From: an uncultured delta proteobacterium
GTDB taxonomy: Bacteria; Myxococcota_A; Polyangia; Fen-1088
Length of the DNA: 64,000 nt
Assembly (NCBI GenBank): GCA_963767925.1
Contig: CAVYGB010000009.1
Location: forward strand, 96,001-160,000
Direction of reading: 5' to 3'
Both the position numbers and the translations under genes were made by a program. Below are positions 1 to 24,887 of the stretch, piece after piece; position 1 is the stretch's first letter, and each line of letters opens with the position of its first letter. A model generated the notes under the pieces. That model had not been told where the DNA came from. It was given only the letters and a program-made list of their open reading frames with translations, and did not search any database.

Positions 1-912
1 GAGGCGGTAAAAGAGGTCCTCCCGGAAGCGACCGCCGGCCACCTCGGCCCGCAGGTCGCGGTTCGTCGCGGCGATCACCCGAACGTCGACCTTGAGGGTC
101 TCGTTGCCTCCCACCCGCTCGAGCTCGTGCTCCTGCAGAAAACGCAGCAGCTTGACCTGCATCGCGGGCGAGATGTCGCCGATCTCGTCGAGGAAGAGGG
201 TGCCCCGGTCGGCCTGCACGAACCGCCCCTCCCGCCGCCCGACCGCCCCGGTGAAGGCCCCCCGCTCGTGGCCGAACAGCTCGCTCTCCAGCAGAGACTC
301 GGCCAGCGCCCCGCAGTGCAGCTTGACGAACGGCCCCTTGGCCCGCGGGCTCCGCTCGTGGATGGCCGCGGCGATGAGCTCCTTGCCGGTCCCCGATTCT
401 CCCGTGACGAGGATGCTCGCGCGCGACCCCGCCACCTGGACCACGGTCTTGAACACCGCCTGCATGGCGGGGGCGCTGCCCAGGATGTGCTCGAAGCTGT
501 AGCGCTCGGCCAGACGCGCGCGGAGGTGACCGGCTTCGCGCTGCAGCCGGAGTCGCTCCATCTCGCGCCCGATGCCGAACGACAGCTCGGTGACGTTGAG
601 CGGCTTCATGAAATACCCGGCCGCCCCCTCGTGCAGGGCGGCCACCGCGTTTTCGACGGCCCCGTACGCGGTCATCACCAGCACGACGACGTCGGGGCTG
701 TCGCTGCGCAGCTTCTTGAGCAGCTCCACCCCGTTCATCCCCGGCATGCGCAGGTCGGTCAGGACCAGATCGGGCCCGAACTCCTGCACCTTGCCCAGCG
801 CCTTGAAGCCGTCGGCTGCGGTCTCGACCAGGTAGCCATCGGCGCGCAGCAGCTCGCCCAGGGCGGTCCGGGCATCCGCCTCATCGTCGACAACCAGCAC
901 TCTGCCCTTCAT
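1..912 (-). CDS. NtrC/AtoC-family sigma54-dependent response regulator (REC + AAA+), truncated at window edge
   Basis: Hand translation from ATG at 912: [11 protein letters not shown]...DLRMPGMNG...TGESGTGKE...[15 protein letters not shown]...LFLDEIGD...EDLFYRL. Intact GAFTGA; absent from the ORF track because there is no stop in the window. Confidence 0.95.
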
Positions 913-7408: not shown

Positions 7409-8776
7409 TCAGCCGATGACCCGCTTCTTCTGCCAGGTGCCGCGGGTGAAGTCGGGGAAGGGGACCGGGGCGCTGGACTGGGCGACCGAGGCGTCGGCGA
7501 GGGGGCCGGGGACGCTCCAGGTGGCGGCGTCGTAGACGTCCATGTCGGGGGCCAGGCCCTCGTGGAGGCACTGGATCAGGCGGTACAGCATCACGAAGTC
7601 CATGCCGCCGTGGCCGCCGCGCTGGCGGGCGATCTCGCCGGTCTTGCGCCAGAGGGGGTGCTCGTATTCGGCGGCGAGGGGCTCGATGTCCTGCCAGTCG
7701 TGGGCCGCCTCCTGGCCGTCGAAGAAGATGCGCGGGGGGTAGTCGCGGAAGGCGCCGCGGGTGCCGGAGACCATGTTGATGCGGTCGTAGGGGCGGGGGG
7801 AGACGACGTCGTGCTGCAGGACGATGGTGCGGCCGAGGGCGGTCCGGATCAGGCTGGTGTTCATGTCCCCGCACGTGTAGCTCTCGCGGCGGCGGGGGTC
7901 GTCGGCGGGGAGCTTGTCCCGGTGGATCTGCAGGCCGCGCGAGGCGCTGCTCATCGAGACCAGGCGCTCGAAGCGGTCGCCGCGGTTGATGTCCATGTAG
8001 CGGGCGACCGGGCCCAGGCCGTGGGTGGGGTAGAGGTTGCCGTTGCGGCGGGTGTGCCAGGCCCGGCGCCAGAGGCCTTCGCTCTCCCTGGCGAACAGGA
8101 TCTTGCGCAGGTCGTGGATGTAGGCCGCCTCGCCGTGCAGGATCTCGCCGAGCCGGCCGGCCCGCACGAGCTGCAGCACCAGCAGCTCGCTGCGGCCGTA
8201 GCAGCAGTTCTCCAGCATCACGCAGTGGCGGCGGGTGCGCTCGGAGGTGTCGACGAGGCGCCAGCACTCGGCCACCGTGACGGCGGCGGGGACCTCGACG
8301 GCGGCGTGGTGGCCGGCCTCCATCGCCGCCACCGCCATCGGCACATGCCACTCCCAGGGGGTGGCGATGACAACCAGGTCGAGGTCGTCGCGGCGGCACA
8401 GGTTCTCGTAGTCGCGCTCGCCGGCCGAGAAGATCGCCGGGGCGGGCTGGCCGGCCTTCTCGACGGCGGCGGCGGAGCGCGCGGCCTTCTCCCGGACCAC
8501 GTCGCAGACGGCCCGCACGGTCACGCCCTCGAGGCCGAGCAGCAGCTCGAGCAGGAAGTGCCCCCGCTCGCCGACGCCGATCACCCCCACCCGGACCGCA
8601 GGGGTGGCGGCGAAGCGCAGGGTGGCCACGCTCTCCCCGGCGGCGGGGGGCGCGCTCGCCCCGGCCGCGCCGGCGGGTCCCCGCACGGGCGCGCAGGCTG
8701 CGGGCAGGGCCATGCCAGCCGAGGCGAGCAGGGCGCGGCGGCGGGAATCGATCGGGTCGTCGGCGTCGTCGCTCAT
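7409..8776 (-). CDS. GH109-type NAD+-dependent glycosidase (alpha-N-acetylgalactosaminidase-like, Gfo/Idh/MocA fold), Tat-exported
   Basis: SRRRALL Tat signal, GVIGVGERG, ATPWEWH, ENCCY, YPTHGLGP, GGHGGMD. Confidence 0.88.
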   Translation of the reverse strand: MSDDADDPIDSRRRALLASAGMALPAACAPVRGPAGAAGASAPPAAGESVATLRFAATPAVRVGVIGVGERGHFLLELLLGLEGVTVRAVCDVVREKAARSAAAVEKAGQPAPAIFSAGERDYENLCRRDDLDLVVIATPWEWHVPMAVAAMEAGHHAAVEVPAAVTVAECWRLVDTSERTRRHCVMLENCCYGRSELLVLQLVRAGRLGEILHGEAAYIHDLRKILFARESEGLWRRAWHTRRNGNLYPTHGLGPVARYMDINRGDRFERLVSMSSASRGLQIHRDKLPADDPRRRESYTCGDMNTSLIRTALGRTIVLQHDVVSPRPYDRINMVSGTRGAFRDYPPRIFFDGQEAAHDWQDIEPLAAEYEHPLWRKTGEIARQRGGHGGMDFVMLYRLIQCLHEGLAPDMDVYDAATWSVPGPLADASVAQSSAPVPFPDFTRGTWQKKRVIG

Positions 8777-8927
8777 GTCTCCCCCTCAAGGCGCCCGCGG
8801 CCGCGCCCCGGGCCGGGCACGGGCGGGCGCTCGACAAAGGATAACAGGCCGCCGCGCCGGTGGGGGCTTCGCGCACGGGTCGGGGCACGCTATCCTGGGT
8901 GCGCGCGCTTCGCGTGTGAGGGGAACC

Positions 8928-10433
8928 ATGGGGTCGATGACATCCGTCCTGCTGGTGACGGCGCTGCTGGTGGCGCAGGGTCCCTTGCCGGCCACGCCGC
9001 CGGTGAAGGGGGCGCTGCTGGTCACGCCCCCGGTGAAGGGGGCGCTGCCGGTCACGCCGCCGGTCAAGGGGGCGCTGCCGGTCACGCCGCCGGTGAACAT
9101 CCCGGTCACGCCCGCCGGGCGGGCCTTCTCCAACTGGCTGACCGCCTTCAACAGCGGCGACCGGGGGAAGGTCGAGGCCATGATGAAGCAGTTCCGGGAG
9201 CCGCGGCCGGCCGACCGGGTGCTGGACTTTCGCCGCCAGACAGGGGGCTTCGAGCTGAAGAAGGTGCTCGAGTCGGGCCGCCTGCGGATCAACGTCCTCC
9301 TCCAGGAAGAGGGCGGCGATCAGATGGCGGAGGGGAAGATGGAGGTGGAGGACGTCGCCCCCCACCGGGTGACCCGCTGGGAGGTGCGGGCCGTCCCCCG
9401 GCCGTCCGAGTTCGCCCTCCCGCGCCTGACCGAGGCCGCCCTGCTGGAGGCCACCCGCGCGCGCCTGGACGAGCTGGCCGGCAAGGACGCCTTCTCGGGC
9501 GCGGTGCTCATCAGCCGCCAGGGCAAGCCGCTGCTGAGCGAGGTCCGCGGCTTCCAGAACCGGGAGAAGAAGGTCCCCAACCGCCTCGACACGCGCTTCA
9601 ACCTCGGCTCGATGAACAAGATGTTCACCGCGGTGGCGGTGGCCCAGCTCGCCCAGCAGGGCAAGCTCGCGTTCACCGACACCGTGGCCAAGCACCTGCC
9701 CGACTACCCCAACGCCGACCTGGCGAAGAAGGTGACGCTGCACCACCTGCTCAGCCACACCGGCGGGACCGGCGACATCTTCAGCCCCGAATACGAGGCC
9801 AACATCGCCAAGCTGAAGGCCCCCAGGGACTACATCGCCCTCTACGGCAAGCGGGCCGTCGAGTTCGAGCCCGGCTCGCGCTGGGCCTACAGCAACTACG
9901 GCATGGTGCTGGCGGGGGCCATCGTCGAGCGGGTCAGCGGCATGAGCTACTACGACTACGTCCGCAAGCACATCTACCAGCCCGCCGGCATGACCGGCTC
10001 GGACTCCTTCTGGAAGACCGGCAAGACCGCCAACCTGGCCAGGGGCTACAGCGACCGCCAGGGCCCCCCGCGCGAGAATGTACGCTTCCTGCCGCTGCGG
10101 GGCTCACCCGCGGGCGGCGGCTACTCGACCTGCGAGGATCTGGTCCGCTTCGCCACCGCGCTCACCGGCCACAAGCTGCTCGACGCCGCCCACACCACGC
10201 TCCTCACCAGCGGCAAGCCCGGCACGCCCGACAAGGGGTACGGCTATGGCTTCGCGATCGCGAACGACGGCGGCGTGCGCAGCTTCGGCCACGGCGGTGG
10301 CGCCCCCGGGATCAACGCCGACCTGAAGATCTTCCCCGACAGCGGCTACGTGGTCGCCGTGATGGGCAACCGGGATCCGCCCAACGCCTCCCGGCTGAGC
10401 GACTTCATCGCCGCCCGCCTCCCCGCCAAGTAG
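8928..10433 (+). CDS. Secreted serine hydrolase (class C beta-lactamase / D-peptidase family)
   Basis: Signal peptide, FNLGSMNK (SxxK), LLSHTGG, YSNYG, FGHGGG. Confidence 0.92.
   Translation: MGSMTSVLLVTALLVAQGPLPATPPVKGALLVTPPVKGALPVTPPVKGALPVTPPVNIPVTPAGRAFSNWLTAFNSGDRGKVEAMMKQFREPRPADRVLDFRRQTGGFELKKVLESGRLRINVLLQEEGGDQMAEGKMEVEDVAPHRVTRWEVRAVPRPSEFALPRLTEAALLEATRARLDELAGKDAFSGAVLISRQGKPLLSEVRGFQNREKKVPNRLDTRFNLGSMNKMFTAVAVAQLAQQGKLAFTDTVAKHLPDYPNADLAKKVTLHHLLSHTGGTGDIFSPEYEANIAKLKAPRDYIALYGKRAVEFEPGSRWAYSNYGMVLAGAIVERVSGMSYYDYVRKHIYQPAGMTGSDSFWKTGKTANLARGYSDRQGPPRENVRFLPLRGSPAGGGYSTCEDLVRFATALTGHKLLDAAHTTLLTSGKPGTPDKGYGYGFAIANDGGVRSFGHGGGAPGINADLKIFPDSGYVVAVMGNRDPPNASRLSDFIAARLPAK
8991..9113 (+). 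repeat. In-frame 30-bp tandem repeat (3 full copies plus a partial one) encoding TPPVKGALPV
   Basis: GTCACGCCGCCGGTGAAGGGGGCGCTGCCG-type unit repeated after the signal peptide. Confidence 0.9.
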
Positions 10434-13831: not shown

Positions 13832-15799
13832 TCAATAACGAAAGTCGAGGCCGCCGTAGAATGTCCGCGGAGGAACGGGCAGGTAAAGCTCGTCGCCCGC
13901 GGCAAGGAGGTTGTCGCCGCCCACGAAGGCCTCGATCTGCTTCCAGATCGTCTTCTCGAGGCGGACGCCGACGCTGGCGTGGCGGTCGGTGTTGACCGTC
14001 TCGATGATCCCGTCGGCGTCGTCGTCCCGGTAAAACGGGCGCGAGCCGACCAGGCTGCCCCGGGCGCTGGCCGAGAAGCCAGCCCGGTCGTGGCGGTAGC
14101 CCAGGCGGAAGGTGCCCCGGTGCCGGGCCCGCCCCTCGAGCGCGCGATCGTCCTCGAGGTCCTTGGCCAGCGTGAGCGTGTACGAGACGTCGGCGCGCAG
14201 CCCGCCGGCGATCTCGGTCCCCACCGAGGCCTCGACCCCCTGGGTGCGGGCCTCGGCCACGTTCTCGTAGCCGAAGCGGGAGCTCACGCCGATGGCGTCG
14301 GGGTTGAGCAGGCGGGTGATGATGAGATCCTCGATGTCGCTGCGAAACACCCCCAGCGCCAGGCGGGCCCGGGGAAGGGGCCGCCACTCGGCGTCGAGGT
14401 TGACGCCGGCCGAGCGCTCGGGCCGCAGCAGGGGGTTGCCCCCCACCTGGTAGCCGGCCCCCGGGTTCTCGAACAGCAGGTACAGCTCCTGGAAGCTCGG
14501 CGCCCGGTACCCCCAGCCGTAGGCCGCGCGCAGGGCGACCTTCTCGTGGGGGTCGTAACGGGCGGCGATCTTGGGGCTGACGTGCGCGCCGAACTGCGAG
14601 TCGGCGTCGAGCCGCACGCCGGGCAGCAGGGCCACCCGCGGGCGCTCGAGCACCTGCCACTCGTGCTGGGCGAAGACCGACCCGCGCGTGCGGTTCCCCT
14701 CCCCGTCCTGCAGGCGGGGCGAGAACATCCGCTCGTACAGCACCTCGGCCCCCGAGGTCAGCAGGTGGCCGCTGGCGATGGCCCAGTCGTGCTGGGTCCC
14801 CAGGCGGGCCAGGTGCTCGCGCGTCTTCTGGAGCTGGTCGAGCGCGCTCGAGCCGCGCTGGTCGGACAGGAACTGATCGATGTGGAGCCCGTAGTGACCG
14901 GTCAGCCGCAGCCGGCTCCCCCCGGCGAAGCGCCAGTCGGGCTCGAGCGTGCCGCTGGCCTGCTCGGTCAGGGTCTTGCGGTCGAAGATGGCGCCCGCGT
15001 CGCTGCCGCCCACCCCGCTCTGGTCGCGGCGCAGGTATTCGGTCTTGGCCCCCAGCCGGAAGCGCGGGCTCTTGCGCCAGGCGCCGGTCAAGGTCAGGTC
15101 GGAGGTGCGGAAGGAGCTGCCGGTGGTGTCCGGAGTTCCGGGGCTGAGATCCCAGGCCGCCCCCCGGTGGTGGCCGGCGATGGCCATCACCTCGAAGGCC
15201 GTCCGGCGCAGACCCAGCCGGTAGCTGGCGTCGAGCACCCCCAGCGTGCCGCCCGACAGGTGCCCCCCGGTCTCGAGCCGCTCCCTGGGCCGCCGGGTGA
15301 TGATGTTGATGACCCCCGCCACCGCGTCCGAGCCGTAGAGCGCCGAGCCGGCCCCCTTGACGATCTCGATGCGGTCGATCGATTCGACCGGGAAGCGCGA
15401 CAGGTCGAGGCTGCCGCCCAGGCGCCCCTGGGCCCGCTCGCCGTCGACGAGGATGAGGACGTATTCGGGGTCCAGGCCCTGCATGCGGACGGTGAAGCCG
15501 CGCAGGCCGCGGTCGAGGTCCACCCCGGGGTGGGTCTCGAGGATCTCCGCCACGCTCTCCGCGCCGGCCGCCTCGATGGCGCTGCGGTCGATCACCTCCA
15601 CCGCGGCGGTCGAGTCGGCCCGGGCCCGGTCGGTGCGCGAGCCGGTCACCACGATCTCGTCGATAGCCTGCACGTCCGCCTTCACCTCCGGCTTCACGTC
15701 GGGGGCGGGCTCCTCGGCGGGGCTGGCGGCGCTCGTCGCCGCCGCAGGGGGATCGATGGGCTGGGCGAGCAGGAGGGCCGAGAGCAGCGTGGCGAACAT
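13832..15799 (-). CDS. TonB-dependent outer-membrane receptor (haem/iron, HmuR/CirA-like)
   Basis: IVVTGSRT TonB box, LILVDG, IDRIEIVKGAGSALYGSDAVAGVINIIT, YRAPSFQELY, NPLLRPE, aromatic C-terminus. Confidence 0.95.
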   Translation of the reverse strand: MFATLLSALLLAQPIDPPAAATSAASPAEEPAPDVKPEVKADVQAIDEIVVTGSRTDRARADSTAAVEVIDRSAIEAAGAESVAEILETHPGVDLDRGLRGFTVRMQGLDPEYVLILVDGERAQGRLGGSLDLSRFPVESIDRIEIVKGAGSALYGSDAVAGVINIITRRPRERLETGGHLSGGTLGVLDASYRLGLRRTAFEVMAIAGHHRGAAWDLSPGTPDTTGSSFRTSDLTLTGAWRKSPRFRLGAKTEYLRRDQSGVGGSDAGAIFDRKTLTEQASGTLEPDWRFAGGSRLRLTGHYGLHIDQFLSDQRGSSALDQLQKTREHLARLGTQHDWAIASGHLLTSGAEVLYERMFSPRLQDGEGNRTRGSVFAQHEWQVLERPRVALLPGVRLDADSQFGAHVSPKIAARYDPHEKVALRAAYGWGYRAPSFQELYLLFENPGAGYQVGGNPLLRPERSAGVNLDAEWRPLPRARLALGVFRSDIEDLIITRLLNPDAIGVSSRFGYENVAEARTQGVEASVGTEIAGGLRADVSYTLTLAKDLEDDRALEGRARHRGTFRLGYRHDRAGFSASARGSLVGSRPFYRDDDADGIIETVNTDRHASVGVRLEKTIWKQIEAFVGGDNLLAAGDELYLPVPPRTFYGGLDFRY

Positions 15800-15800
15800 G

Positions 15801-16518
15801 TCAGGGTGCCGGGGCGGCGGTGGTGGTGGCCGCGGGGACCCGGGGGGCGGTCGGGGCCTCGAGCTTCTTCCAGCGGAACAGCAGGTACCCGCCGGTGCCG
15901 GCGTCGTCGTAGTAGTCGAGGAGCTGCACGCCGACGTAGCTGCCCGCGCCGGTGAGCACCACGTAGACCTGGCGCCGGGGCTGCAGCACGTGGGCGGCGG
16001 TGTCGTACTGGAACCACGTGTCGCCCTGGTTGAAGGCGAAGTCGGGGTCCATGTTGAGATCCTCGCCGTCGGGCCCGTCGAGCACCCAGCCGGTGGCGGG
16101 CGCGGTCGTCAGCGTCTCGAGGGTCGTGTCGGGCACCAGGGCGACCTCGACCGGGCCGGCGCCGCTGACGCCCCCGTTCGACTTGATCTTGAAGCGCTGG
16201 AACCCGAGCTCCCAGCCGGACGCGGTGGCCGGGTCGGAGGAGACCTGGCTCTGCCCGCCGAGGGGGCCCTCGTCGAAGTCGAAGTAGACCCACTTGTCTT
16301 CCCAGGTGGCGTCGATCCGGGTCTCGAGCGCGTTGCCCACCATCCGGGTCGCGACCGGCGGCGGTGGCGGCGGCTCCGTCTCCCCACCGGCGGGGGCCGA
16401 GATCGTCGGCGCAGCCGCTGGCCAGCGCGAGCAGCAGGAGCGCGGCGCCCCCGGTAGCAGATCGCGCCGCCCGGCGGGGAGGCGCGGCGACGAAATCGAG
16501 GGTGAAATTCACTTTCAT
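15801..16518 (-). CDS. Second HmuY-family lipoprotein, with a +1 frameshift near 16392
   Basis: Core IDATWEDKWVYFDF...WELGFQRFKIKSNGGVSG...WFQYD...YYDDAGTGG (track ORF 15801..16343). The signal peptide LLLLALASGC is in another frame and joins if one base is removed from the GGCCCCC run. Confidence 0.82.
16503..16517. promoter_or_regulatory. Putative Fur box (7-1-7 inverted repeat)
   Basis: TGAAATT-C-ACTTTCA, an AT-rich near-palindrome at the head of the HmuY/TonB receptor operon. Confidence 0.6.
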
Positions 16519-16829: not shown

Positions 16830-19066
16830 ATGGCTTCATCAGCGGAGGTCCCCATGGTGGTCGCATCGAGACGGGCCGTCGTCACCGGCCTGTGCCTGTG
16901 CGCGGTGGTGGCGGGCTGCCGGGGGGGAGCCCGGCCCGTGGAAGGGGATCCTGCCGCCCTGGGCGGATCGGATCCGCGGGCCAGCGGCCCCTCCGAGTTC
17001 GCGGCGGTCGCGGCGCCGCCGCAGTTCCCCAAGGGCGGGCCGCCGCCACCGCCCTCCCTCGCCAACGAGCGGCCGACAAGCCGGCCGCTGGGCCAGCCGT
17101 TCGTCGTCGTCGGCGCGACCGTCTACGCGTTGACCGGCCACGACGGCTTGCAGGTGGCGCAGATCGCGGGGACGCCCGCCGTGCTGGGCCGGCTGCCCCT
17201 GGCCGGCGAGCCGTTCGGGCTGTTCGTGGAGGGGACCACCGCCTTCGCGATGATGGTCTACCAGACGCGCGCCGAGCCGTGCTCGACCTGCGCCGGCCTG
17301 ACACGGCTGACCACCCCTGCGCCCAGCCCGACCTGGAGCTGGCCGTGTTCGACGTGGGCGACCCGGCTCGCCCCGGCCTGCTCGGCCGCCAGGCCGTCGA
17401 CCGGATCGGCGTCGGCCCCACCTCCGCGCTCGGCGCGGGCGACGATCTATTGATGATGCCCCTGCAGGCCGTGCGCCCGGGGACCCAGGTGCCGGGGACC
17501 CTCGCGCCGGTGGGGCTGCGGCTTGTCGACATCGATCAGACCCGCGGGACCGTGGTCCCGCGCGGGGTGGCGCTGCTGCAGGGCGAGACCGACCTGCTCG
17601 TGCGGGCCGGCGAGCGGGCGGTGGCGCTGTCGTTCAACCGGGCCGAGGTTGTGGACCTCCGCGACCGCGACGCCCCGGCCCACCTCGGCGCCCTGGAGCT
17701 GTCCCGCTCGGTCTTCGACCTCGCCCTGGCCGGAGACAGCGTCGTGCAGGTGACCCAGGACCGCTACCAGCGGGGCCAGCGGGCGTTCCAGCTCGCCGCC
17801 GTCCCGGCCAGCGCCCCCCAGGATCTCGCTCGCTCGACCGGATCGACCACGCCCTTCGTCGGCCAGGCCGGGCCCCTGTTCGGCGCCGGAGCCTTCGTCT
17901 ACCAGTTCTGGAAGGCGGGGACCGCCACCGGCGAGGAGCCGCGCCTGCAGGTGCTGCAACTCCAGGACGGCCGCCTGCAGCCGCGGGGCGCGCTGTCGCT
18001 CGCCGGCCCGGCCGACGTCGACTTCGGCTTCGGGCCGGGGGACAGCCCCCTGCAGGTCGGGGTGCGGCAGCTCGACGCCACAACCTTCCTGGTGCCGCTC
18101 TTCCGGGTCCGCGACTGCTCGGCCCGGACCATCCCGGGCTCGCCGGCCCCCGGCTGCCCCGACGGCAGCGGCGCGACCCCGCCCGCACCGGTCACCCCAC
18201 CTCCCCCGCCGCCCACCGCCTCCGGGGCCTGCCCGGGCGCGGAGGCCGACTTCCTCGTCGTCGACGCCAGCAACCCGGACGAGCCGCGCGTCAGCTCTCG
18301 GTTCCGGCTCCCGAACGGCGCCCAGCTCCTGACCCTGCTGGTGCGCGGCCGGACCGTCTTCGTCACCCAGCGCGAGCGCGCCCGGCGCGCCGACCGGACG
18401 ACCAATCTCGTACGCCACTTCGTCACCGAGGTGAGCCTCGCCGACCTGGCCCGCCCGGTGGTGGGCGCAGCGGTCAGCGCCCCGGGTGGGCTGGTGGCCG
18501 AGCGGGCCAGCGACGCCACCTGGGTCACCGTCGAGCCCATCTACAACCCGGCCGGGCCTCCCAGCGGCGTCATGGTGAGCACCCTGTACCGCGACGCGCG
18601 GTCGAGCCGGGCGTTCCTGCAGCGCCAGCTCGCCCTCCCGGGCGGCGTCTCCGGCCCGGTGGCCGACGGCGACGCTCTGTTCTTCACCGTGGATGGAAAG
18701 CTGGTGGCCGTCGAACCGTTTGCCCCCGGGGGTCCCCGGGTCCGCTCGCGCACCGCCGTCCTCGACGCCTCGGTCAGCGGCGACGGGGGACCGCTGGGGT
18801 CCGGCTTCCCCCGAGATCTCCCTGGCGATCCGCCGGTGTACCCGTCTCCGGCCAACCTGCACCGGGCGGTGAACGGGCAGGTGTTCGTCGTGTATCGACA
18901 CGGGGTCATGTTGATTTACGACGCCCGCGATCGGGACCGCCCCGTGCGTCTGGACCGGTTCGTTGTCACCAGCGATCGCACGCCGGTGCTCCCGGTGGCG
19001 GGAAACCGGGCGCTGCTCACCCGGGACGGGTGGGGGATCGAGGTCGTGGCGCTCCCGGCGCTCTGA
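16830..19066 (+). CDS. Secreted beta-propeller-type lipoprotein, frameshifted near 17320
   Basis: Signal LCAVVAGC in ORF 16830..17453; body continues in ORF 16742..19066 with repeated propeller-blade motifs (AVFDVGDPARP, VVDLRDRDAP, VVDASNPDEP, VSLADLARP, IYDARDRDRP). Confidence 0.72.
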
Positions 19067-19102
19067 GCCATGAAAATCGAGGCTGTCCGGGCCTGAGTTG
19101 CC

Positions 19103-22100
19103 TTGGCTATATTGCCGCCCGTGAACGCGGCCACCGGGGGCACGCCGAACGATCCCACGAGAGCCTTCTGGGAGCGCGCTCGGCTGGAGGCGGATCGATA
19201 TGGTCCCGATCCCTGGATCTTCGTCCGCGAGCTGCTGCAGAACGCGCGCGACGCCGGCGCGGACGAGGTGCGGTTTCACGTCTTCGATCGCGAGGGCCCC
19301 GACGCCACCGTGATCTGCCAGGACAACGGCGAGGGCATGACCTTCGATCACGCCCGCCGCTTCCTGTTCGCCCTCTACGCCTCCAGCAAGGAGGGCAAGA
19401 AGAACCAGGCGGGCAAGTTCGGGGTGGGCTTCTGGTCGGTGCTGCGCTTCGAGCCGCTCGGCATCATCATCCGCTCGCGGCCGCGCGAGGGTGAAGCCTG
19501 GGGCGTCTCGATCGACGGCACCCTCGAGCAGGTGGTCCCGGTCGATCCGCCCGCCCACGTCGGCACCGAGGTCATCTTGCGCCGGGCCCGGCGCGAGGGG
19601 CGCGACTCGCGCCTCGAGCACCGGATCTACGATGCCGTCTGGCAGAGCGCGCGGTACTTGAGCCAGCGCGACAACCCGCTCGAGCCGCTCGGCATCGCCG
19701 TCAACGGCCGTCCGGCCAACGCGCCCTTCGAGCTCGACGCCCCCAGCGCCAGCTTCCAGCGGGGGCCGCTGCGGGGCGTGGTCGGCCTGGGGGCCGCCCC
19801 CCGGGTCGAGCTGTTCAGCCGGGGGCTGCGGGTGCGCTCGGCCGCCTGTCTCGAGGACCTGCTGTCGTCGGCCGGTCGCCACACGAGCTGGATGCGGGTC
19901 CAGTTCACCGAGCTGTCGGGCGGCCTGGCCCCCCAGGCGCTGCTGGAGAGCCCGGCCCTCGAGGTGATGTTGTCCCGCTCGGACGCCCGCGAGACCCGCG
20001 GCCTGCGCCGGCTGGTGCGGCTGGCTCAGCGCGAGCTGGAGCGGTTGATGGAGCGCCAGCTCGCGGCGGCCCGCCCGATGCCCTGGCGCAGCCGCGCCCT
20101 GAGCTGGGTGCAAGAGCGGCTGCGGGCCCTGTCCCGGCTGAGTCGCGCCGACGCCGCCGTGGTGGCCGCCGCCGCCCTGGTCGCCATCGGCATGATCTGG
20201 CGGGGCAGCACCGCCTCCAGCGACGAGCTCGCGCCCGCCGCGCCGAGCGCGTCGGCGCCCGCGCAGGTGGCGGCGGCGTCGTCCCCGGCGCCGGCGGCGC
20301 GTCCCCCCGGCCGCCCTTACCAGGATCTCGGCAGCCGCTACCGGGGCCCCAGCGTCGACGGCCTCGCCGCCGACGAGGTCGAGGCCATCGGGCTGCGCTA
20401 CCGCCCCGGCGACCGGCCCCAGCACTTCGCCGCCCTGACCTTCTCGCGGCTGGGCCCCGACGGCTCCCCGATCCAGGAGGCGGTGCCCCGTCCGGTCGCC
20501 AGCTACGCCCCCGCCGCCACCTGTCCGCCCGGGCGTTGCCTGCAGCTCGAGCTGCCCCTGCGCACGCCGACCCGGGCGGTGCGCGTCCCGGTCCCCACCG
20601 GGCACCGGGTGGTGGGGGCCAGCGTGACCATGGAGGGGCAGCAGGCGCCCCGGCTGCGCGCCTCCGCCGACGGCCGCCCCATCGTGGTGCTGGTCAGCCC
20701 GGGTGAGGGCCTGCTCCGCTACCGCACGGTGCTGGCCAGCGATCCGAACCTGGCCCCGGTGCCCAACCCGCCCGAGCTGCCGGCGCGGCTCGGCCGGCGC
20801 GCTCGCCAGCTCCGCCTGCAGCCGGTCGCCCGCCGGGTCGCGGTGCTGCTGGAGCTGGTGCGCCGGCGCGTGGCCTACGACGACTCGCCCACCACCGCCC
20901 GCCAGCACCGCGAGGCGGTGGCCCGGAGGCAGGGCTTCATCAATCGCACGCTGGCCATCGGCGCGGGCGACTGCGACGTGCAGAACGGCCTGCTCACCGC
21001 CCTCCTGCACGCGGCCGGCGTGCCGGCCCGGCTGGCGGTGGGCTACCTCGGCGATCGGGGCAGCGTCCTGCCCTGGGTCCACGCCTGGGTAGAGTACTTC
21101 GACGAGGGCGGGCGCTGGCAGATCCTCGACGCCAGCGAGACCTCGGCCGGCCAGGCCCGGGTGGCCCGTTCGGGCGGGCCCAGCCTCGACGATCCGGTGG
21201 AGGCCTTCGCGGTGGCCGACGCGGCCTCGGCGTCGGCGCCGGCGGGCGCGGCTGCCCCCACCGCGGCGGTCTTGCCCGCGCCGGTGTTGCCGACGGCGGC
21301 CGGGCGCGCGCCGGGTCCGGTGGCGCGCCCCCAGCCCGGGGTTCGCCCGCCGCCGGTCGAGTCGAGCGGCTGGTCGGGCGCCCTGCTCGGGGCGGCCTTG
21401 CCCCTGCTGCTCCTGCTCGGGGGCGGCTACCTGTTCCGGGCGCGCACCCGCCACGCCTTCAAGCTCGACGGGGTCGTCGATCTCGGCAAGCTGATCCAGG
21501 GGGTCCTGCAGCAGCCGGGCGCCTTCGGCCACATCCACGCCGTGTTCTACCGGCCCATCGTGCCCCTGGCCGACGGCCGGGCGGTCAGCCTGAGCCGGGC
21601 GCGCGAGCTGGCCAGCCGGGGGCGCCTGTTCTCCACCCGCCTGCGGCCCGAGCTGGCCCGCACCGCGCTGGCCGCCGGGGCGGCGGTGGTGGACTACGTG
21701 CTCGAGGAGGGCAAGACGGTGGCCGACGCCCTCGGCGCGATCGACCTCGACCAGTGGTCGAAGATGATCGCCATCGCCGCCGACGAGCCGCTGCTCGACG
21801 AGGTCAACCGCCTGCTGCGCAGCGAGGGGGAGGACTGGATGGTCCGCTCGGGCACCGAGGTGAAGGCCGGCGTCGCCGCCCTCGACCTGCGGCCGCTCGG
21901 CGCCCGCCTGCCGGGCGTGAAGGGCACCCGCCTCGTGCTGATCGACAACCAGGCGCCCTGGCTGGACGAGGCCCGCCGCTACTTCGAGAGCCGGCCCCAG
22001 GCCGCCACCTTCATGGTGCTCGACCAGCTCGCCCTGCGCCTCAACCTGCCCCGGCGGCGGCGGGGGCAGATCCTCGGCGAGTCGGCCCGCCAGGCCATCC

Positions 22101-22120
22101 TCGAGTCGTTCGCCACCTGA
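19103..22120 (+). CDS. Hsp90/GHKL-type ATPase fused to a membrane-flanked transglutaminase-like (Cys-His-Asp) domain
   Basis: N-terminal RELLQNARDAG, DNGEGMT, GKFGVGF, GTEV; TM1 AAVVAAAALVAIGMIW; GDCDV (Cys 20972), HAWVE (His 21080), WQILD (Asp 21128); TM2 ALLGAALPLLLLLGGGYLF. Confidence 0.85.
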   Translation: MAILPPVNAATGGTPNDPTRAFWERARLEADRYGPDPWIFVRELLQNARDAGADEVRFHVFDREGPDATVICQDNGEGMTFDHARRFLFALYASSKEGKKNQAGKFGVGFWSVLRFEPLGIIIRSRPREGEAWGVSIDGTLEQVVPVDPPAHVGTEVILRRARREGRDSRLEHRIYDAVWQSARYLSQRDNPLEPLGIAVNGRPANAPFELDAPSASFQRGPLRGVVGLGAAPRVELFSRGLRVRSAACLEDLLSSAGRHTSWMRVQFTELSGGLAPQALLESPALEVMLSRSDARETRGLRRLVRLAQRELERLMERQLAAARPMPWRSRALSWVQERLRALSRLSRADAAVVAAAALVAIGMIWRGSTASSDELAPAAPSASAPAQVAAASSPAPAARPPGRPYQDLGSRYRGPSVDGLAADEVEAIGLRYRPGDRPQHFAALTFSRLGPDGSPIQEAVPRPVASYAPAATCPPGRCLQLELPLRTPTRAVRVPVPTGHRVVGASVTMEGQQAPRLRASADGRPIVVLVSPGEGLLRYRTVLASDPNLAPVPNPPELPARLGRRARQLRLQPVARRVAVLLELVRRRVAYDDSPTTARQHREAVARRQGFINRTLAIGAGDCDVQNGLLTALLHAAGVPARLAVGYLGDRGSVLPWVHAWVEYFDEGGRWQILDASETSAGQARVARSGGPSLDDPVEAFAVADAASASAPAGAAAPTAAVLPAPVLPTAAGRAPGPVARPQPGVRPPPVESSGWSGALLGAALPLLLLLGGGYLFRARTRHAFKLDGVVDLGKLIQGVLQQPGAFGHIHAVFYRPIVPLADGRAVSLSRARELASRGRLFSTRLRPELARTALAAGAAVVDYVLEEGKTVADALGAIDLDQWSKMIAIAADEPLLDEVNRLLRSEGEDWMVRSGTEVKAGVAALDLRPLGARLPGVKGTRLVLIDNQAPWLDEARRYFESRPQAATFMVLDQLALRLNLPRRRRGQILGESARQAILESFAT

Positions 22121-22128
22121 CCCCGCAC

Positions 22129-23691
22129 ATGCCCGCCCCCCGCCCGGCCCCGCCCGGCCTCGACATCCAGGGCCTGCTGACCATCGACGTGGCGGCGGAG
22201 CTGCGCAAGCTGTCGCTGGCCCAGCTCCAGGGGCCCTGGCAGCTCCCGGCCGAGCTGGTCCGGCGGGCCATCCGCACGGGGGCCACCCAGATCGGCGTCT
22301 CGTTCACGCGCGACCGGGTGGTGATCTCCGACGACGGCCCGGGGCTCGATCCGTCCCTCGTGCAGTGGACCGCCATCGTCGTCGACCGCAAGCGGTCCGC
22401 CGAGGAGCGCCACCTGGCCCTCACGACGCTGGAGCGGGCCGGCGAGCTCGGCCTGCTGGCCCTGGCCGGCCTCGAGCCGCTGCGCGAGGTGGCCATCCAC
22501 ACCATCTTCGGCAACCAGCACCACGTGCTGGCCTACCAGGCGGGCCAGCCGGCCAGCGTGGAGGTGGGGCGGGCCACCCGCGCGGCGGGGACCCAGATCA
22601 TCGTGCGGGCCGGGGGCCTCGATCGCCGGCGGGCGGCGCGCTGGATCGCGGATGTGGCCCGCTTCGCGCCCGTCGCGGTGGTGGTGGACGGGCGGGCGAT
22701 CCCCGACGGCATGGCGGACAGCCTGCTGCAGGCTCCCCTGCAGGCCCCCCTGCGGGGCCGGCTCGCGCTGCTGCTCGAAGGGGACACCGCCCACGCTTGC
22801 TTGCTGGCCAACGGCCTGGTGAGCGCCCACCTCAGCATCCCCGACGCGCCCTGCTTCGAGGCGGCGGTGGAGCTGGCCAGCGTCCAGGGCGAGCTCAGCC
22901 CGGCCCGGCTGCGCGACGCCATCGCCCGCAACCTGCCCGCGCTGATCGATCAGGCCGTCGCGCTGATCGTCGCCGGCGCGGCCCAGGCGGCCGACTGGCC
23001 CCACGCCCGGCGGGCCCGCCTGGCCCACCTGACCTTGCAGGCCGCCCGGCGCAAGCTCCGCCCCGAGGAGATCGAGCGGGCGGCGGTGTTCCAGCAGGTG
23101 GGGACCGGCGGCCCCGCGCTGGTCGACCTGGCCACCCTGCGGCGGGCGGCCACCACCGGCCCGGGCGGGCCCGGGACCCTGCTGGCGCTCGACCCGGGCG
23201 AGCGCCCCGAGCGCTACGCGGTCGGCCTCGACCCGGTGCTGATCGCCGACGACGCCGAGCGGAGCCTGCTGGCCGAGGTGCTGGGCGTCCGCTTCCGCAC
23301 CCCCAACCGGCAGGAGGCGGCCCACACCCCGCGCGCGCTGGTCCGCCGCCTGCTGCGCGGGGGGCGCCGCCTGCTGGCCCAGGGCCTCGGCCTGTTGCTG
23401 CACCCCTCGCGGCGCCCGGCGCTGCCCGACCACGTCCTCAGCGCGCGCGAGCGCGCCTTCCTCACGGCGCTGCGCGAGCACCTGCGCGACAACCCGGTGC
23501 CCGGGGTCGAGGCGGTGGCCCTGTGCCCGGGCGGCGGCCCGCTCCGCCGCCCCCACGGCACGCCTCCGCTGCTGCACCTGCCCCGGGACAACGCCACCGT
23601 GTCAGCTTGCCTGCGGGCCTTCAGCAGCGATCCGCGCTGGGTGCGCCTCATCCACCTGGCGCTCACCGGCGCCGTCGGGCGCAGCGGCTGA
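22129..23691 (+). CDS. Degenerate GHKL/Hsp90-like protein, probable paralogue of the upstream gene
   Basis: ELVRRA replaces ExxxNA; ISDDGPG and GTQI are retained; no GxxGxG lid motif; ATG is 8 bp after the upstream stop. Confidence 0.7.
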   Translation: MPAPRPAPPGLDIQGLLTIDVAAELRKLSLAQLQGPWQLPAELVRRAIRTGATQIGVSFTRDRVVISDDGPGLDPSLVQWTAIVVDRKRSAEERHLALTTLERAGELGLLALAGLEPLREVAIHTIFGNQHHVLAYQAGQPASVEVGRATRAAGTQIIVRAGGLDRRRAARWIADVARFAPVAVVVDGRAIPDGMADSLLQAPLQAPLRGRLALLLEGDTAHACLLANGLVSAHLSIPDAPCFEAAVELASVQGELSPARLRDAIARNLPALIDQAVALIVAGAAQAADWPHARRARLAHLTLQAARRKLRPEEIERAAVFQQVGTGGPALVDLATLRRAATTGPGGPGTLLALDPGERPERYAVGLDPVLIADDAERSLLAEVLGVRFRTPNRQEAAHTPRALVRRLLRGGRRLLAQGLGLLLHPSRRPALPDHVLSARERAFLTALREHLRDNPVPGVEAVALCPGGGPLRRPHGTPPLLHLPRDNATVSACLRAFSSDPRWVRLIHLALTGAVGRSG

Positions 23692-23701
23692 GCCGCCCGC
23701 G

Positions 23702-24247
23702 CTACTCGAGCTCGTTGACGACGGTGGCGGCGGTGCTGCCGCTGACCTCGCCTACGATCTCGCCGGCCGCGTTGACCGAGCCGTGCCGGGAGTAGGTGGC
23801 CCGGATGTCGTCGCAGTCGAGGTCGCCGGTGGCGCCGGCGGTGAACTCCGCCGTGGCGTTGGTGCCGGCCGACTGATAGCTGGGATAGTAGTTGTAGGGC
23901 TCGGGGATGGTGAACTGGAGGGCCTGCCAGGTCGGGCTGTTGTAGCGGGCGTCGTTGCCCTGGCACTTGGCGGCGGTGCCCGAGCAGCAGTCGACGGTGC
24001 CCAGGACCCCGTCCGGGTCGGGGAACTGCTTGGCGCTGGTGCCGGAGCCCTGGTCGCCCTCGAAATAGGCCACCGAGCTCTGCCACATCTTGTTCAGATG
24101 GGAGGCCGCCTCGGCGGTGCGGGACTTCTTCACGTAGCGAGAGAAGGCGGGCAGGGCGACCGAGGCCAGGACGCCGATGATCGCGACGACGATCATCAGC
24201 TCCACGAGTGTGAACCCCGCGCTTACCCGACGTGCCGTTCTTGCCAT
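23702..24247 (-). CDS. pilA: Type IVa pilin (PilA-like)
   Basis: Class III signal G|FTLVELMIVVAIIGVLASVALP, KSRTAEA, W.ALQF, ATGDLDCDD. Confidence 0.88.
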   Translation of the reverse strand: MARTARRVSAGFTLVELMIVVAIIGVLASVALPAFSRYVKKSRTAEAASHLNKMWQSSVAYFEGDQGSGTSAKQFPDPDGVLGTVDCCSGTAAKCQGNDARYNSPTWQALQFTIPEPYNYYPSYQSAGTNATAEFTAGATGDLDCDDIRATYSRHGSVNAAGEIVGEVSGSTAATVVNELE

Positions 24248-24461: not shown

Positions 24462-24887
24462 TCACGGGGTGTCCCACTTCTGGAAGGCGATGGGCGCCTG
24501 CGCGAAGTCGCACATCTCGTCGGGCTGGTTGTCTCCGCTCATGGTGAGGGTGCCGTTGATGGTGATGCCGCTGAGCTGGCCGATGACGTCGACCACCGTG
24601 AGGCTCGAGCGCCGGCCGGTGCCGTGGGCCGCCAGCGTGACCAGGCCGTCCACCACCGTCCCCGCCAGGGGCCCGTTCTCGAGACAGGCGAGCCGGCCGC
24701 TGCTCAGCGCGCCCTGCAGGTGGGTGGTGCCGCCCTCGACAACCTGGCTGCTGACCTGCAAGGAGAGGGCGATGCCGGCGGTCTCGCCCCGCCAGGTCCC
24801 CACGAAAAATCCGGGCTCGTCGCCGCCGCCGCAGGCGACGAGCAGCAAACCGGGGACCGCGGCCAGAAGTATCGCGCTTCGTCTCAT
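24462..24887 (-). CDS. Hypothetical lipoprotein
   Basis: GGAGG RBS, MRRSAILL...LLLVAC lipobox, beta-rich body (FVGTWRG). Confidence 0.75.
   Translation of the reverse strand: MRRSAILLAAVPGLLLVACGGGDEPGFFVGTWRGETAGIALSLQVSSQVVEGGTTHLQGALSSGRLACLENGPLAGTVVDGLVTLAAHGTGRRSSLTVVDVIGQLSGITINGTLTMSGDNQPDEMCDFAQAPIAFQKWDTP

Follow-up and report, generated by a model that had tools for sequence, protein, structure and literature searches.

A paired locus of Polyangia encoding a putative membrane-spanning Hsp90-like ATPase with a TgpA-like transglutaminase insert and a degenerate Hsp90-like partner

Hsp90 proteins are known as soluble homodimers whose protomers dimerise through their C-terminal helices. 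LapG is a transglutaminase-like cysteine protease, and for TgpA (PA2873) of Pseudomonas aeruginosa, a protein with a periplasmic domain of the transglutaminase fold, we take the operon partners in the cluster PA2875-2874-2873 to be a MoxR-type AAA+ ATPase and a DUF58 protein. TgpA matters for the viability of P. aeruginosa, and its periplasmic domain acts as a transglutaminase in vitro (PMC3507681). Here, we describe two adjacent genes that combine features of these systems. They lie in a stretch of 64,000 nucleotides from an uncultured delta proteobacterium (Polyangia, Fen-1088; assembly GCA_963767925.1, contig CAVYGB010000009.1, forward-strand positions 96,001 to 160,000), which was analyzed as a whole and is called the window; all positions below are window positions. 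Gene 1 (19103..22120, plus strand, 1,005 amino acids) encodes a putative membrane-spanning Hsp90-like ATPase with a TgpA-like transglutaminase insert that is predicted to be periplasmic, as judged from its open reading frame (ORF), GC content at the third codon position (GC3), Pfam matches, and full-length homologues. Gene 2 (22129..23691, plus strand, 520 amino acids) encodes what appears to be a soluble, full-length Hsp90-like pseudo-ATPase, as judged from GC3, a structure model, Foldseek, and VIA-align. None of the folds is new in itself; the novelty lies in how they are combined, where the insert sits, and how the two genes are paired.

On the structure model, gene 1 reads as an Hsp90-like N-domain and the start of an Hsp90-like middle domain, followed by a first transmembrane (TM) helix, a TgpA-like domain, a second TM helix, the rest of the middle domain, and a C-terminal domain. 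The first region (residues ~17 to 345; 19151..20137, plus strand), comprising a putatively cytoplasmic GHKL ATPase domain and the first part of the middle domain, is supported by Pfam, NCBIfam, sequence motifs, and structure matches. Pfam HATPase_c_3 covers residues 41 to 114 (E = 3.5e-10), and the GHKL motifs are found as ELLQNARD at residues 43 to 50, DNGEG at 74 to 78, and GKFGVG at 104 to 109. In an alignment of 30 relatives (44 to 65% identity), on which all conservation counts for gene 1 are based, E43, N47, D50, D74, G76, G78, the stretch G104-x-F-G-V-G-F-W-S, and G154-T155 are invariant (30/30). The Hsp90 middle domain contributes a catalytic arginine; arginines that are invariant in the gene 1 family alignment are R234, R240, R243, and R245. 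Residues 40 to 116 also pass the NCBIfam model NF047352 for a sacsin-type ATP-binding domain (51.1 bits against a cutoff of 50; E = 1.4e-13), a match that serves as a domain-level label only.

The AlphaFold2 model of gene 1 has a predicted local distance difference test (pLDDT) score of 74.0 and a predicted template modeling (pTM) score of 0.43; it is confident at residues 40 to 200, 400 to 680, and 800 to 1005 and weak in the linkers and at residues 210 to 345, a segment that leads into the first TM helix (pLDDT about 50 to 70). When this model was compared with 48,161 representative solved chains by VIA-align, structures consisting of the Hsp90 N-terminal and middle domains aligned across the insert, with overall Z scores of 12.3 to 13.5 over model residues 11..886. 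Among them are GRP94 (2o1w_A, Z = 13.5, model 33..885; 5uls_A, Z = 13.1, 327 aligned residues, model 11..886 onto GRP94 72..595) and TRAP1 (7ulk_A, Z = 12.9, model 35..883; 6xg6_A, Z = 12.3, 321 aligned residues, model 22..886 onto TRAP1 94..554). The N-domain aligns with those of Hsp90, MutL, and sacsin at Z scores of 10.9 to 13.5. With the same model, Foldseek retrieved both families, represented by TRAP1 (E = 7.9e-10) and TgpA (E = 1.1e-9).

The best structure match of the gene 1 model concerns the putative periplasmic domain (residues 407 to 685; 20321..21157, plus strand), which VIA-align superimposes on 6g4h_A, the periplasmic domain of TgpA from P. aeruginosa, with a Z score of 17.1 and a root mean square deviation (rmsd) of 3.9 Å, aligning 249/278 residues at 18% identity; the corresponding Foldseek match has a TMt of 0.55. 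LapG aligns with the same domain at a Z score of 7.8. The transglutaminase core itself is recognized by Pfam (Transglut_core, residues 576 to 677, corresponding to 20828-21133; E = 5.4e-13), and C624, H660, and D676, which make up the Cys-His-Asp triad, are each present in 30/30 relatives.

Two hydrophobic segments, both helical in the model, flank this domain: TM helix 1 at residues ~348 to 366 (20144..20200, plus strand; hydropathy 1.7) and TM helix 2 at residues ~759 to 779 (21377..21439, plus strand; hydropathy 1.99). With a Kyte-Doolittle threshold of 1.6 for hydrophobic helices, both reach the threshold in 27/30 relatives, and the remaining 3 show the first helix only, which is thus present in 30/30. 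Lysine and arginine are distributed unevenly around helix 1 (5 before, 0 after) and number 3 before and 5 after helix 2. Two conserved hydrophobic helices and the calculated positive-inside charge bias fit an in-out-in topology, in which the TgpA-like domain would face the periplasm.

The region behind the second helix (residues 790 to 1005; 21470..22117, plus strand), predicted to be cytoplasmic, is modeled with a pLDDT above 90. Residues ~790 to 886 appear to complete the middle domain, and the alignments with Hsp90 N-terminal plus middle domains extend to model residues 883 to 891; residues ~896 to 1005 resemble the Hsp90 C-terminal domain. This tail aligns with the C-terminal domain of Escherichia coli HtpG (1sf8_A; Z = 6.2, 97/115 residues aligned, model 896-1001 onto HtpG 510..624) and with that of yeast Hsp90 (2cge_A; Z = 6.0), and in the model these matches are located exactly where a co-linear Hsp90 would place them. 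A Pfam scan of 25 members of the C-terminal domain family found no Pfam family matched by more than one member. Searching 1.84 billion proteins with a profile of this domain yielded 390 cluster representatives, of which 145, taken from the best 150, were examined. Full-length proteins account for 56 of them, and the other 89 are fragments that run co-linear with the gene 1 C-terminal part. An ancestral form, with the GHKL domain joined straight to the C-terminal domain, occurs in none of the 145, and the middle domain is interrupted by the insert in every one of the 56 full-length proteins.

A preliminary description made from the sequence alone had credited gene 1 with intact GHKL motifs, a transglutaminase-like domain with a complete catalytic triad, and an in-out-in arrangement, and had proposed that a TM-transglutaminase-TM cassette interrupts an HtpG-like protein. 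The conserved ATPase and triad residues bear out the first two points, and the third is consistent with the helix and charge pattern. The fourth agrees with the alignment of GRP94 and TRAP1 across the insert, the TgpA match, and the match of the tail to HtpG.

Pfam domains are absent from all 120 listed homologues of gene 2, and wherever a source names one of them, the name is “hypothetical protein.” When 38 members of the family were scanned singly, sub-threshold matches to HATPase_c appeared in 18/38 (best E = 1.6e-4) and to HATPase_c_3 in 14/38. A profile built from the same 38 members and compared with solved structures matched only the N-terminal ATPase domains of MutL/PMS2, which account for 14/15 of the sequences listed for this profile (E = 3.1e-4 to 6.7e-3), with ELVRRA of gene 2 aligned to ELVENS of MutL and DDGxG to DNGCG. 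Together with the profile comparison with gene 1 described below and counts of individual alignment columns, these matches define a degenerate GHKL domain at residues ~35 to 160 (22231..22608, plus strand). Its recognizable motifs are ELVRRA (residues 42 to 47), DDGPG (68 to 72), and GTQI (154 to 157). E42 is kept in 38/38 relatives, an arginine (R45) replaces the Mg-binding asparagine in 38/38, and the aspartate of DxGxG is retained in 28/38; the glycine lid is gone, with GELxLLALAGL in its place.

The fold of gene 2 is modeled with more confidence (pLDDT 87.1, pTM 0.69) than that of gene 1. All matches listed by Foldseek belong to the Hsp90 family, the best being TRAP1 (5tvw_B, E = 4.4e-16, ~630 alignment columns). 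In VIA-align, the N-terminal and middle domains of TRAP1 (4ivg) match model residues 1 to 394 with a Z score of 16.8, an rmsd of 7.5, and 370 aligned residues. Hsp90 chains in general reach Z scores of 16 to 17, and the full-length ones among them span model residues 10 to 515 at an rmsd of about 16 Å, which is this high because the domain angles differ. These full-length alignments, along with the predicted interface discussed below, also suggest an Hsp90 C-terminal-domain-like part at residues ~395 to 520 (23311..23688, plus strand). The 43K fragment of GyrB aligns with the first two domains at a Z score of 15.6 and an rmsd of 4.5 Å, and the label “Hsp90-like” therefore depends, for these two domains, on overall co-linearity. 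On the model, gene 2 would therefore encode a soluble Hsp90-like protein that consists of three parts and whose ATP site is dead. This is close to what had been anticipated from the sequence, namely, a protein that starts 8 bp past gene 1, keeps traces of the GHKL motifs (DDGPG and GTQI), and has lost the N-box asparagine and the glycine lid; the expectation of an inactive GHKL fold now has the full-length Hsp90 match and the invariant Asn-to-Arg replacement on its side.

How are the two proteins related? Profile-profile comparison by hhalign aligns residues 36 to 255 of gene 1 with residues 35 to 248 of gene 2 (probability 95%, E = 4.2e-8), suggesting that the N-terminal ~200 residues of the two proteins are detectably related and probably paralogous. 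For the C-terminal halves, comparison of gene 1 residues 770 to 1005 and 255 to 350 with gene 2 residues 250 to 520 gave no signal (E = 0.24 each). The predicted secondary-structure order is parallel in both C-terminal halves, and an Hsp90-like C-terminal part at the end of both proteins is a weakly supported structural suggestion. The resemblance between the two terminal segments that the preliminary description had pointed out is not detectable as sequence similarity by this comparison.

Binding between the two proteins was explored by complex prediction with gene 1 residues 785 to 1005 and gene 2 residues 250 to 520, each supplied with its own family alignment, in three runs alongside three controls. 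The median score was 0.62 (runs 0.44, 0.62, and 0.67), compared with 0.18 for the best control; the same mark is reached by 116/157 solved complexes and 2/215 mismatched pairs, a calibration that is rough here, where own alignments were used. The runs share at least 44% of their contacts, the pLDDT of the partner is at least 70, and the predicted interface joins the last helix of gene 1 (984 to 1005) to the last two helices of gene 2 (helices at 489 to 513, interface residues 489 to 518). This supports, but does not show, binding of the two proteins through their terminal helices. Regarding the earlier suggestion that gene 2 is an inactive subunit of a heterodimer, binding is what the prediction favors, and heterodimers and homodimers are not separated by it. 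A 912-amino-acid cluster representative (P0377) joins a C-terminal part of gene 1 (profile positions 547 to 982) to a part of gene 2 (162 to 499) in a single frame; either the two genes are naturally fused there or the sequencing or the assembly is in error. A search of longer proteins for fusions of gene 1 with gene 2 returned none, which the tool itself rates as weak evidence.

The two genes are found together wherever this can be assessed. Among 41 related genomes, four besides the window's own contain a full-length gene 1 (34 to 54% identity), and one of the same genus contains a partial homologue on a short contig; in the complete related loci (4/4), gene 1 is immediately followed by a gene 2 homologue. 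A broader scan for gene 2 with one genome per species gave 64 loci of other species, and 63 of them have, immediately before gene 2 and in the same orientation, a gene 1 homologue that covers the same profile or is cut by the contig end. In the 64th locus, 118 bases separate the start of gene 2 from the end of the contig. The gaps between the genes are a few bases in 63/63 assessable loci, and the gene 1 architecture is present in 114/120 listed homologues. A chimeric assembly or one-off fusion, considered as an explanation of gene 1, is ruled out by this recurrence. The concerns that the fusion might be confined to this contig, or that the genes might not co-occur elsewhere, are thereby settled. 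Three loci (L038, L081, and L082) have a gene 1 that is broken up across two to four frames, as is gene 2 in L081; pseudogenes or assembly errors are possible causes.

The carriers include Nannocystis (N. exedens, N. punicea, N. radixulma, and N. bainbridge), Enhygromyxa salina, Plesiocystis pacifica, Paraliomyxa miuraensis, many metagenome-assembled genomes (MAGs) of Nannocystaceae and Polyangia, and five Acidobacteriota MAGs (Thermoanaerobaculia, Sulfomarinibacteraceae). Gene 2 occurs in at least 8/301 genomes of a sample of the phylum, a floor because four candidates were scored per genome. In an unrooted FastTree phylogeny (local support values) of 53 gene 1 proteins, sequences group by genus (Nannocystis, Enhygromyxa, and a Paraliomyxa group), and the Acidobacteriota proteins form one clade with a support of 99, which is consistent with predominantly vertical inheritance and an ancient transfer between the phyla. 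Nested within this clade is a gene 1 from a contig labelled Chondromyces sp. (MAG), nearly identical to that of a Thermoanaerobaculia MAG (branches of 0.056 and 0.088; L073/L080), and its placement likely reflects a binning error rather than a transfer. The window's genome carries a single copy of gene 1 and, elsewhere, a canonical HtpG (397.9 bits) and a separate canonical TgpA_N protein (on contig C13 of our set); the gene pair therefore adds to these proteins and does not replace them.

Beyond the pair itself, no neighbor is common to more than 22 of the 65 loci (the window plus the 64 others). The largest neighbor clusters are SDR proteins (22 loci), an unknown 236-amino-acid protein (14), cytochrome-c-like proteins (13), ECF σ factors (11), and SpoU methylases (11), which looks like lineage synteny of unrelated housekeeping genes, not a functional set. 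In one Nannocystaceae clade (L021 10597-12346 and 10 to 13 further loci), the ~236-amino-acid protein (14 loci) and the ECF σ factor (11 loci) come next after the pair, in the same orientation; the window has neither of them after the pair.

Based on this architecture, we put forward, tentatively, that the pair forms an asymmetric transmembrane Hsp90-like clamp controlling a periplasmic transglutaminase or protease, an interpretation that we regard as quite possible but would stop short of calling probable. Gene 1 and gene 2 would then constitute a single machine, an asymmetric membrane-embedded relative of Hsp90. Its gene 1 protomer would contribute the active-looking ATP site, and a TM hairpin that interrupts the middle domain would carry the TgpA-like transglutaminase or cysteine protease domain into the periplasm. 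Gene 2, as a soluble paralogue deprived of its ATP-site residues, would pair with the cytoplasmic part of gene 1 via the C-terminal helices. Binding and hydrolysis of ATP at the sole live site might close and open the cytoplasmic clamp. Because both TM helices leave from inside the middle domain, this motion could be transmitted outward across the membrane, where it would switch the position or the activity of the periplasmic enzyme, which in turn might cross-link or cleave envelope proteins. The more demanding version of this proposal holds that the heterodimer is obligately asymmetric, i.e., that an Hsp90-type dimer built into the membrane always has one live and one dead ATP site, and that clamp motion through the TM hairpin is what switches the enzyme; we consider this version doubtful, if still a serious candidate.

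Several observations weigh against the clamp proposal in either version. The match of the gene 1 tail to the C-terminal domain of HtpG is weak, at a Z score (6.2) in the range that the tool calls common, and the topology was derived by a calculation from hydropathy and charge. With a gene 1 model of moderate confidence, the relative placement of its cytoplasmic parts depends on the model. For the first two domains of gene 2, GyrB 43K is a match comparable to Hsp90 and has the lower rmsd, and the C-terminal halves of the two proteins lack profile similarity (E = 0.24). The success of the complex prediction may reflect a likeness to solved C-terminal dimers of Hsp90, and the prediction does not discriminate a 1:1 heterodimer from two homodimers. 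Finally, no conserved neighbor indicates a substrate.

An alternative explanation keeps both activities but uncouples them: the TgpA-like enzyme would work constitutively in the periplasm, tethered to a membrane-anchored Hsp90-like chaperone whose clients are cytoplasmic proteins or nascent ones destined for the membrane or for secretion, or signals would travel from outside to inside, with ATP not controlling the enzyme. Hsp90 proteins are, after all, chaperones, the architecture and the pairing are equally compatible with a tether, and no result presented here gives the direction of coupling. However, one would expect a simple tether to be attached at an end of the protein, and the insert sits inside the middle domain in 56/56 full-length representatives; moreover, a C-terminal domain without the insert is absent among the 145 examined of the 390 profile matches, and the genome already holds a canonical HtpG. 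We consider this alternative, in either form, unlikely.

Still further removed from the evidence, and distinctly improbable in our view, is an arrangement in which gene 1 forms a homodimer, which would have four TM helices in total and one outer domain per protomer, and gene 2 acts separately as a homodimeric regulator, decoy, or co-chaperone. Strict adjacency with gaps of a few bases in 63/63 assessable loci weighs against such independence, as does a predicted interface that joins the terminal helices of both proteins with a score 0.44 above the best control; P0377, which joins parts of both genes in one frame (and may be an assembly error), points the same way. The ATPase domains of Hsp90, MutL, and GyrB are usually homodimeric, though, the complex test is blind to the difference between hetero- and homodimers, and the sequences of the C-terminal halves are dissimilar, all of which speak for homodimers. 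That the locus is an anti-phage or conflict system, with a sacsin-type GHKL sensor as in TmtA of the Tiamat system and a transglutaminase-fold protease as effector, is very improbable: the GHKL domain of gene 1 does match PADLOC TmtA (E = 8.4e-13) and the NCBIfam sacsin-type model, and the distribution is patchy (at least 8/301 genomes of the phylum sample), but the TmtA match is confined to this domain (positions 58 to 150 of 1,486), gene 2 has no PADLOC match, the neighbors are of the housekeeping type (TonB receptor, HmuY, SDR, ECF σ factor, SpoU methylase) with no mobile or defense genes among those scanned, the tree of 53 gene 1 proteins tracks genera as expected for mostly vertical descent, and the window's genome has a single copy of gene 1.

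If the more demanding version of the clamp proposal holds, the pair would be the first GHKL-driven device for transmembrane mechanotransmission and a new way to power reactions in the ATP-free periplasm. A membrane-threaded relative of Hsp90 with an enzyme in its middle domain and a dead paralogue as a constant companion would come as a surprise to the Hsp90 field, and it would lend itself to asking to what extent the Hsp90 cycle depends on two ATP sites and by what means clamp motions act on a partner. Envelope biology would gain a third kind of cytoplasmic motor acting on the periplasm, besides ABC and AAA+ ATPases, and the pair may help to explain the role of TgpA-type transglutaminases. 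The cultured carriers Nannocystis exedens, Enhygromyxa salina, Plesiocystis pacifica, and Paraliomyxa miuraensis make the idea directly testable.

The remaining features of the locus concern reading frames and adjacent genes. Gene 1 starts at TTG 19103 or GTG 19121, ATG being absent, and its stop codon is TGA 22118-22120; gene 2 is the portion from ATG 22129 onward of the ORF 21754-23691 and begins 8 bases after that stop. The window is GC-rich (GC ~0.74; the assembly has 9.3 Mb in 13 contigs), and its closest protein matches point to a myxobacterium of the Nannocystaceae/Polyangia group. The two frames were taken as coding because of their high GC3 (gene 1, 0.958; gene 2, 0.977). Codon-position GC likewise rules out the antisense ORFs 17447-21538 and 21979-23577 as true genes; the latter, with a GC3 of 0.844 and a first-position GC of 0.94, bears the signature of an antisense frame. 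Upstream of gene 1, positions 16830-19066 (plus strand) look like a single gene spread over two frames: the frame of ATG 16830 opens with a lipoprotein-like signal (…VVAGC…), and the high GC3 shifts frame at ~17200-17300 and persists to the stop at 19066, which could reflect a frameshift, an assembly error, or two genes. This ORF has no Pfam family, apart from a weak hint of Beta_propel (E = 0.07), and tblastn at E up to 1e-3 found no match to it in any of the 64 fetched related loci. On the other side, a small pilin-like protein with a prepilin-type N-terminal methylation motif (N_methyl; 23702-24247, minus strand) converges on the end of gene 2 and is followed by a small ORF without a family (24462-24887, minus strand). 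Farther away are a TonB-dependent receptor with Plug and barrel domains and an adjoining HmuY-family protein, likely a heme uptake pair (13832-16343, minus strand), and a beta-lactamase-family protein (8604-10433, plus strand).

How does the gene pair compare with described systems as a whole? A search of full-text literature, with subscription journals and supplements outside its reach, found no description of a GHKL-transglutaminase membrane fusion or of its partner, in line with the earlier impression that the architecture has not been characterized. Both domain types are mentioned only in unrelated proteins in a paper on HEPN domains (PMC3710099), and TgpA is listed in a classification of papain-like peptidases, the main text of which has no mention of HATPase, Hsp90, or GHKL (PMC10318531).

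In the models, the likeness to Hsp90 (HtpG, TRAP1, and GRP94) appears to extend over the entire length of both proteins, which seem co-linear with it in having a GHKL N-domain, a middle domain, and a C-terminal domain. Gene 1 keeps the lid motif GxFGVGFxS, ExxxN, and DxGxG, whereas gene 2 lacks the ATP-site residues, and the predicted contact between the two through their terminal helices is reminiscent of the C-terminal dimer of Hsp90. Unlike Hsp90, gene 1 is interrupted in its middle domain by an insert of ~400 residues, predicted to be periplasmic, and bears two putative TM helices, and the pair comprises two genes instead of a single homodimer-forming one. Neither protein matches Pfam HSP90 (PF00183) at E values up to 0.1; gene 1 remains far below the cutoffs of the Hsp90 models (40.4 versus 455 bits for PRK14083 and 12.9 versus 371 for HtpG PRK05218), for which gene 2 has no match.

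MutL/PMS2 is approached through the N-domains, which the gene 2 profile matches and with which the N-domain of gene 1 aligns at a Z score of 12.5 (MutL). The endonuclease domain at the C terminus of MutL is missing, however, and over the whole length the fold match is to Hsp90; against the NCBIfam model mutl, gene 1 scores 21.5 bits versus a cutoff of 180, and gene 2 has no match. Similarly, the GHKL domain of gene 1 passes the sacsin model and aligns with sacsin SR1 (5v44) at a Z score of 10.9, and its N-terminal ~100 residues provide the best match to TmtA of Tiamat given above. These likenesses are limited to ~100 to 190 residues of the ATPase domain, and the rest of these giant proteins is absent, the TmtA match falling far short of the 1,486-position model.

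A looser parallel exists with LapD-LapG and with FtsEX-type ABC systems, in which a cytoplasmic nucleotide-dependent module controls a periplasmic hydrolase. This is an analogy only, as their cytoplasmic parts are not homologous to those of gene 1: they use c-di-GMP receptors or ABC ATPases and a separate enzyme, while gene 1 has a GHKL clamp and the enzyme on one polypeptide. On the periplasmic side, the outer domain of gene 1 shares with TgpA the fold, the Cys-His-Asp triad, and, according to the predicted topology, the attachment to the inner membrane between TM helices; it differs in that gene 1 has no N-terminal multi-TM domain (TgpA_N, PF11992/DUF3488), just as TgpA has no fused ATPase. 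Judged by curated models, the pair thus stands outside the Hsp90, MutL, and TgpA families, being Hsp90-like in fold and domain order and TgpA-like in the domain predicted to lie outside.

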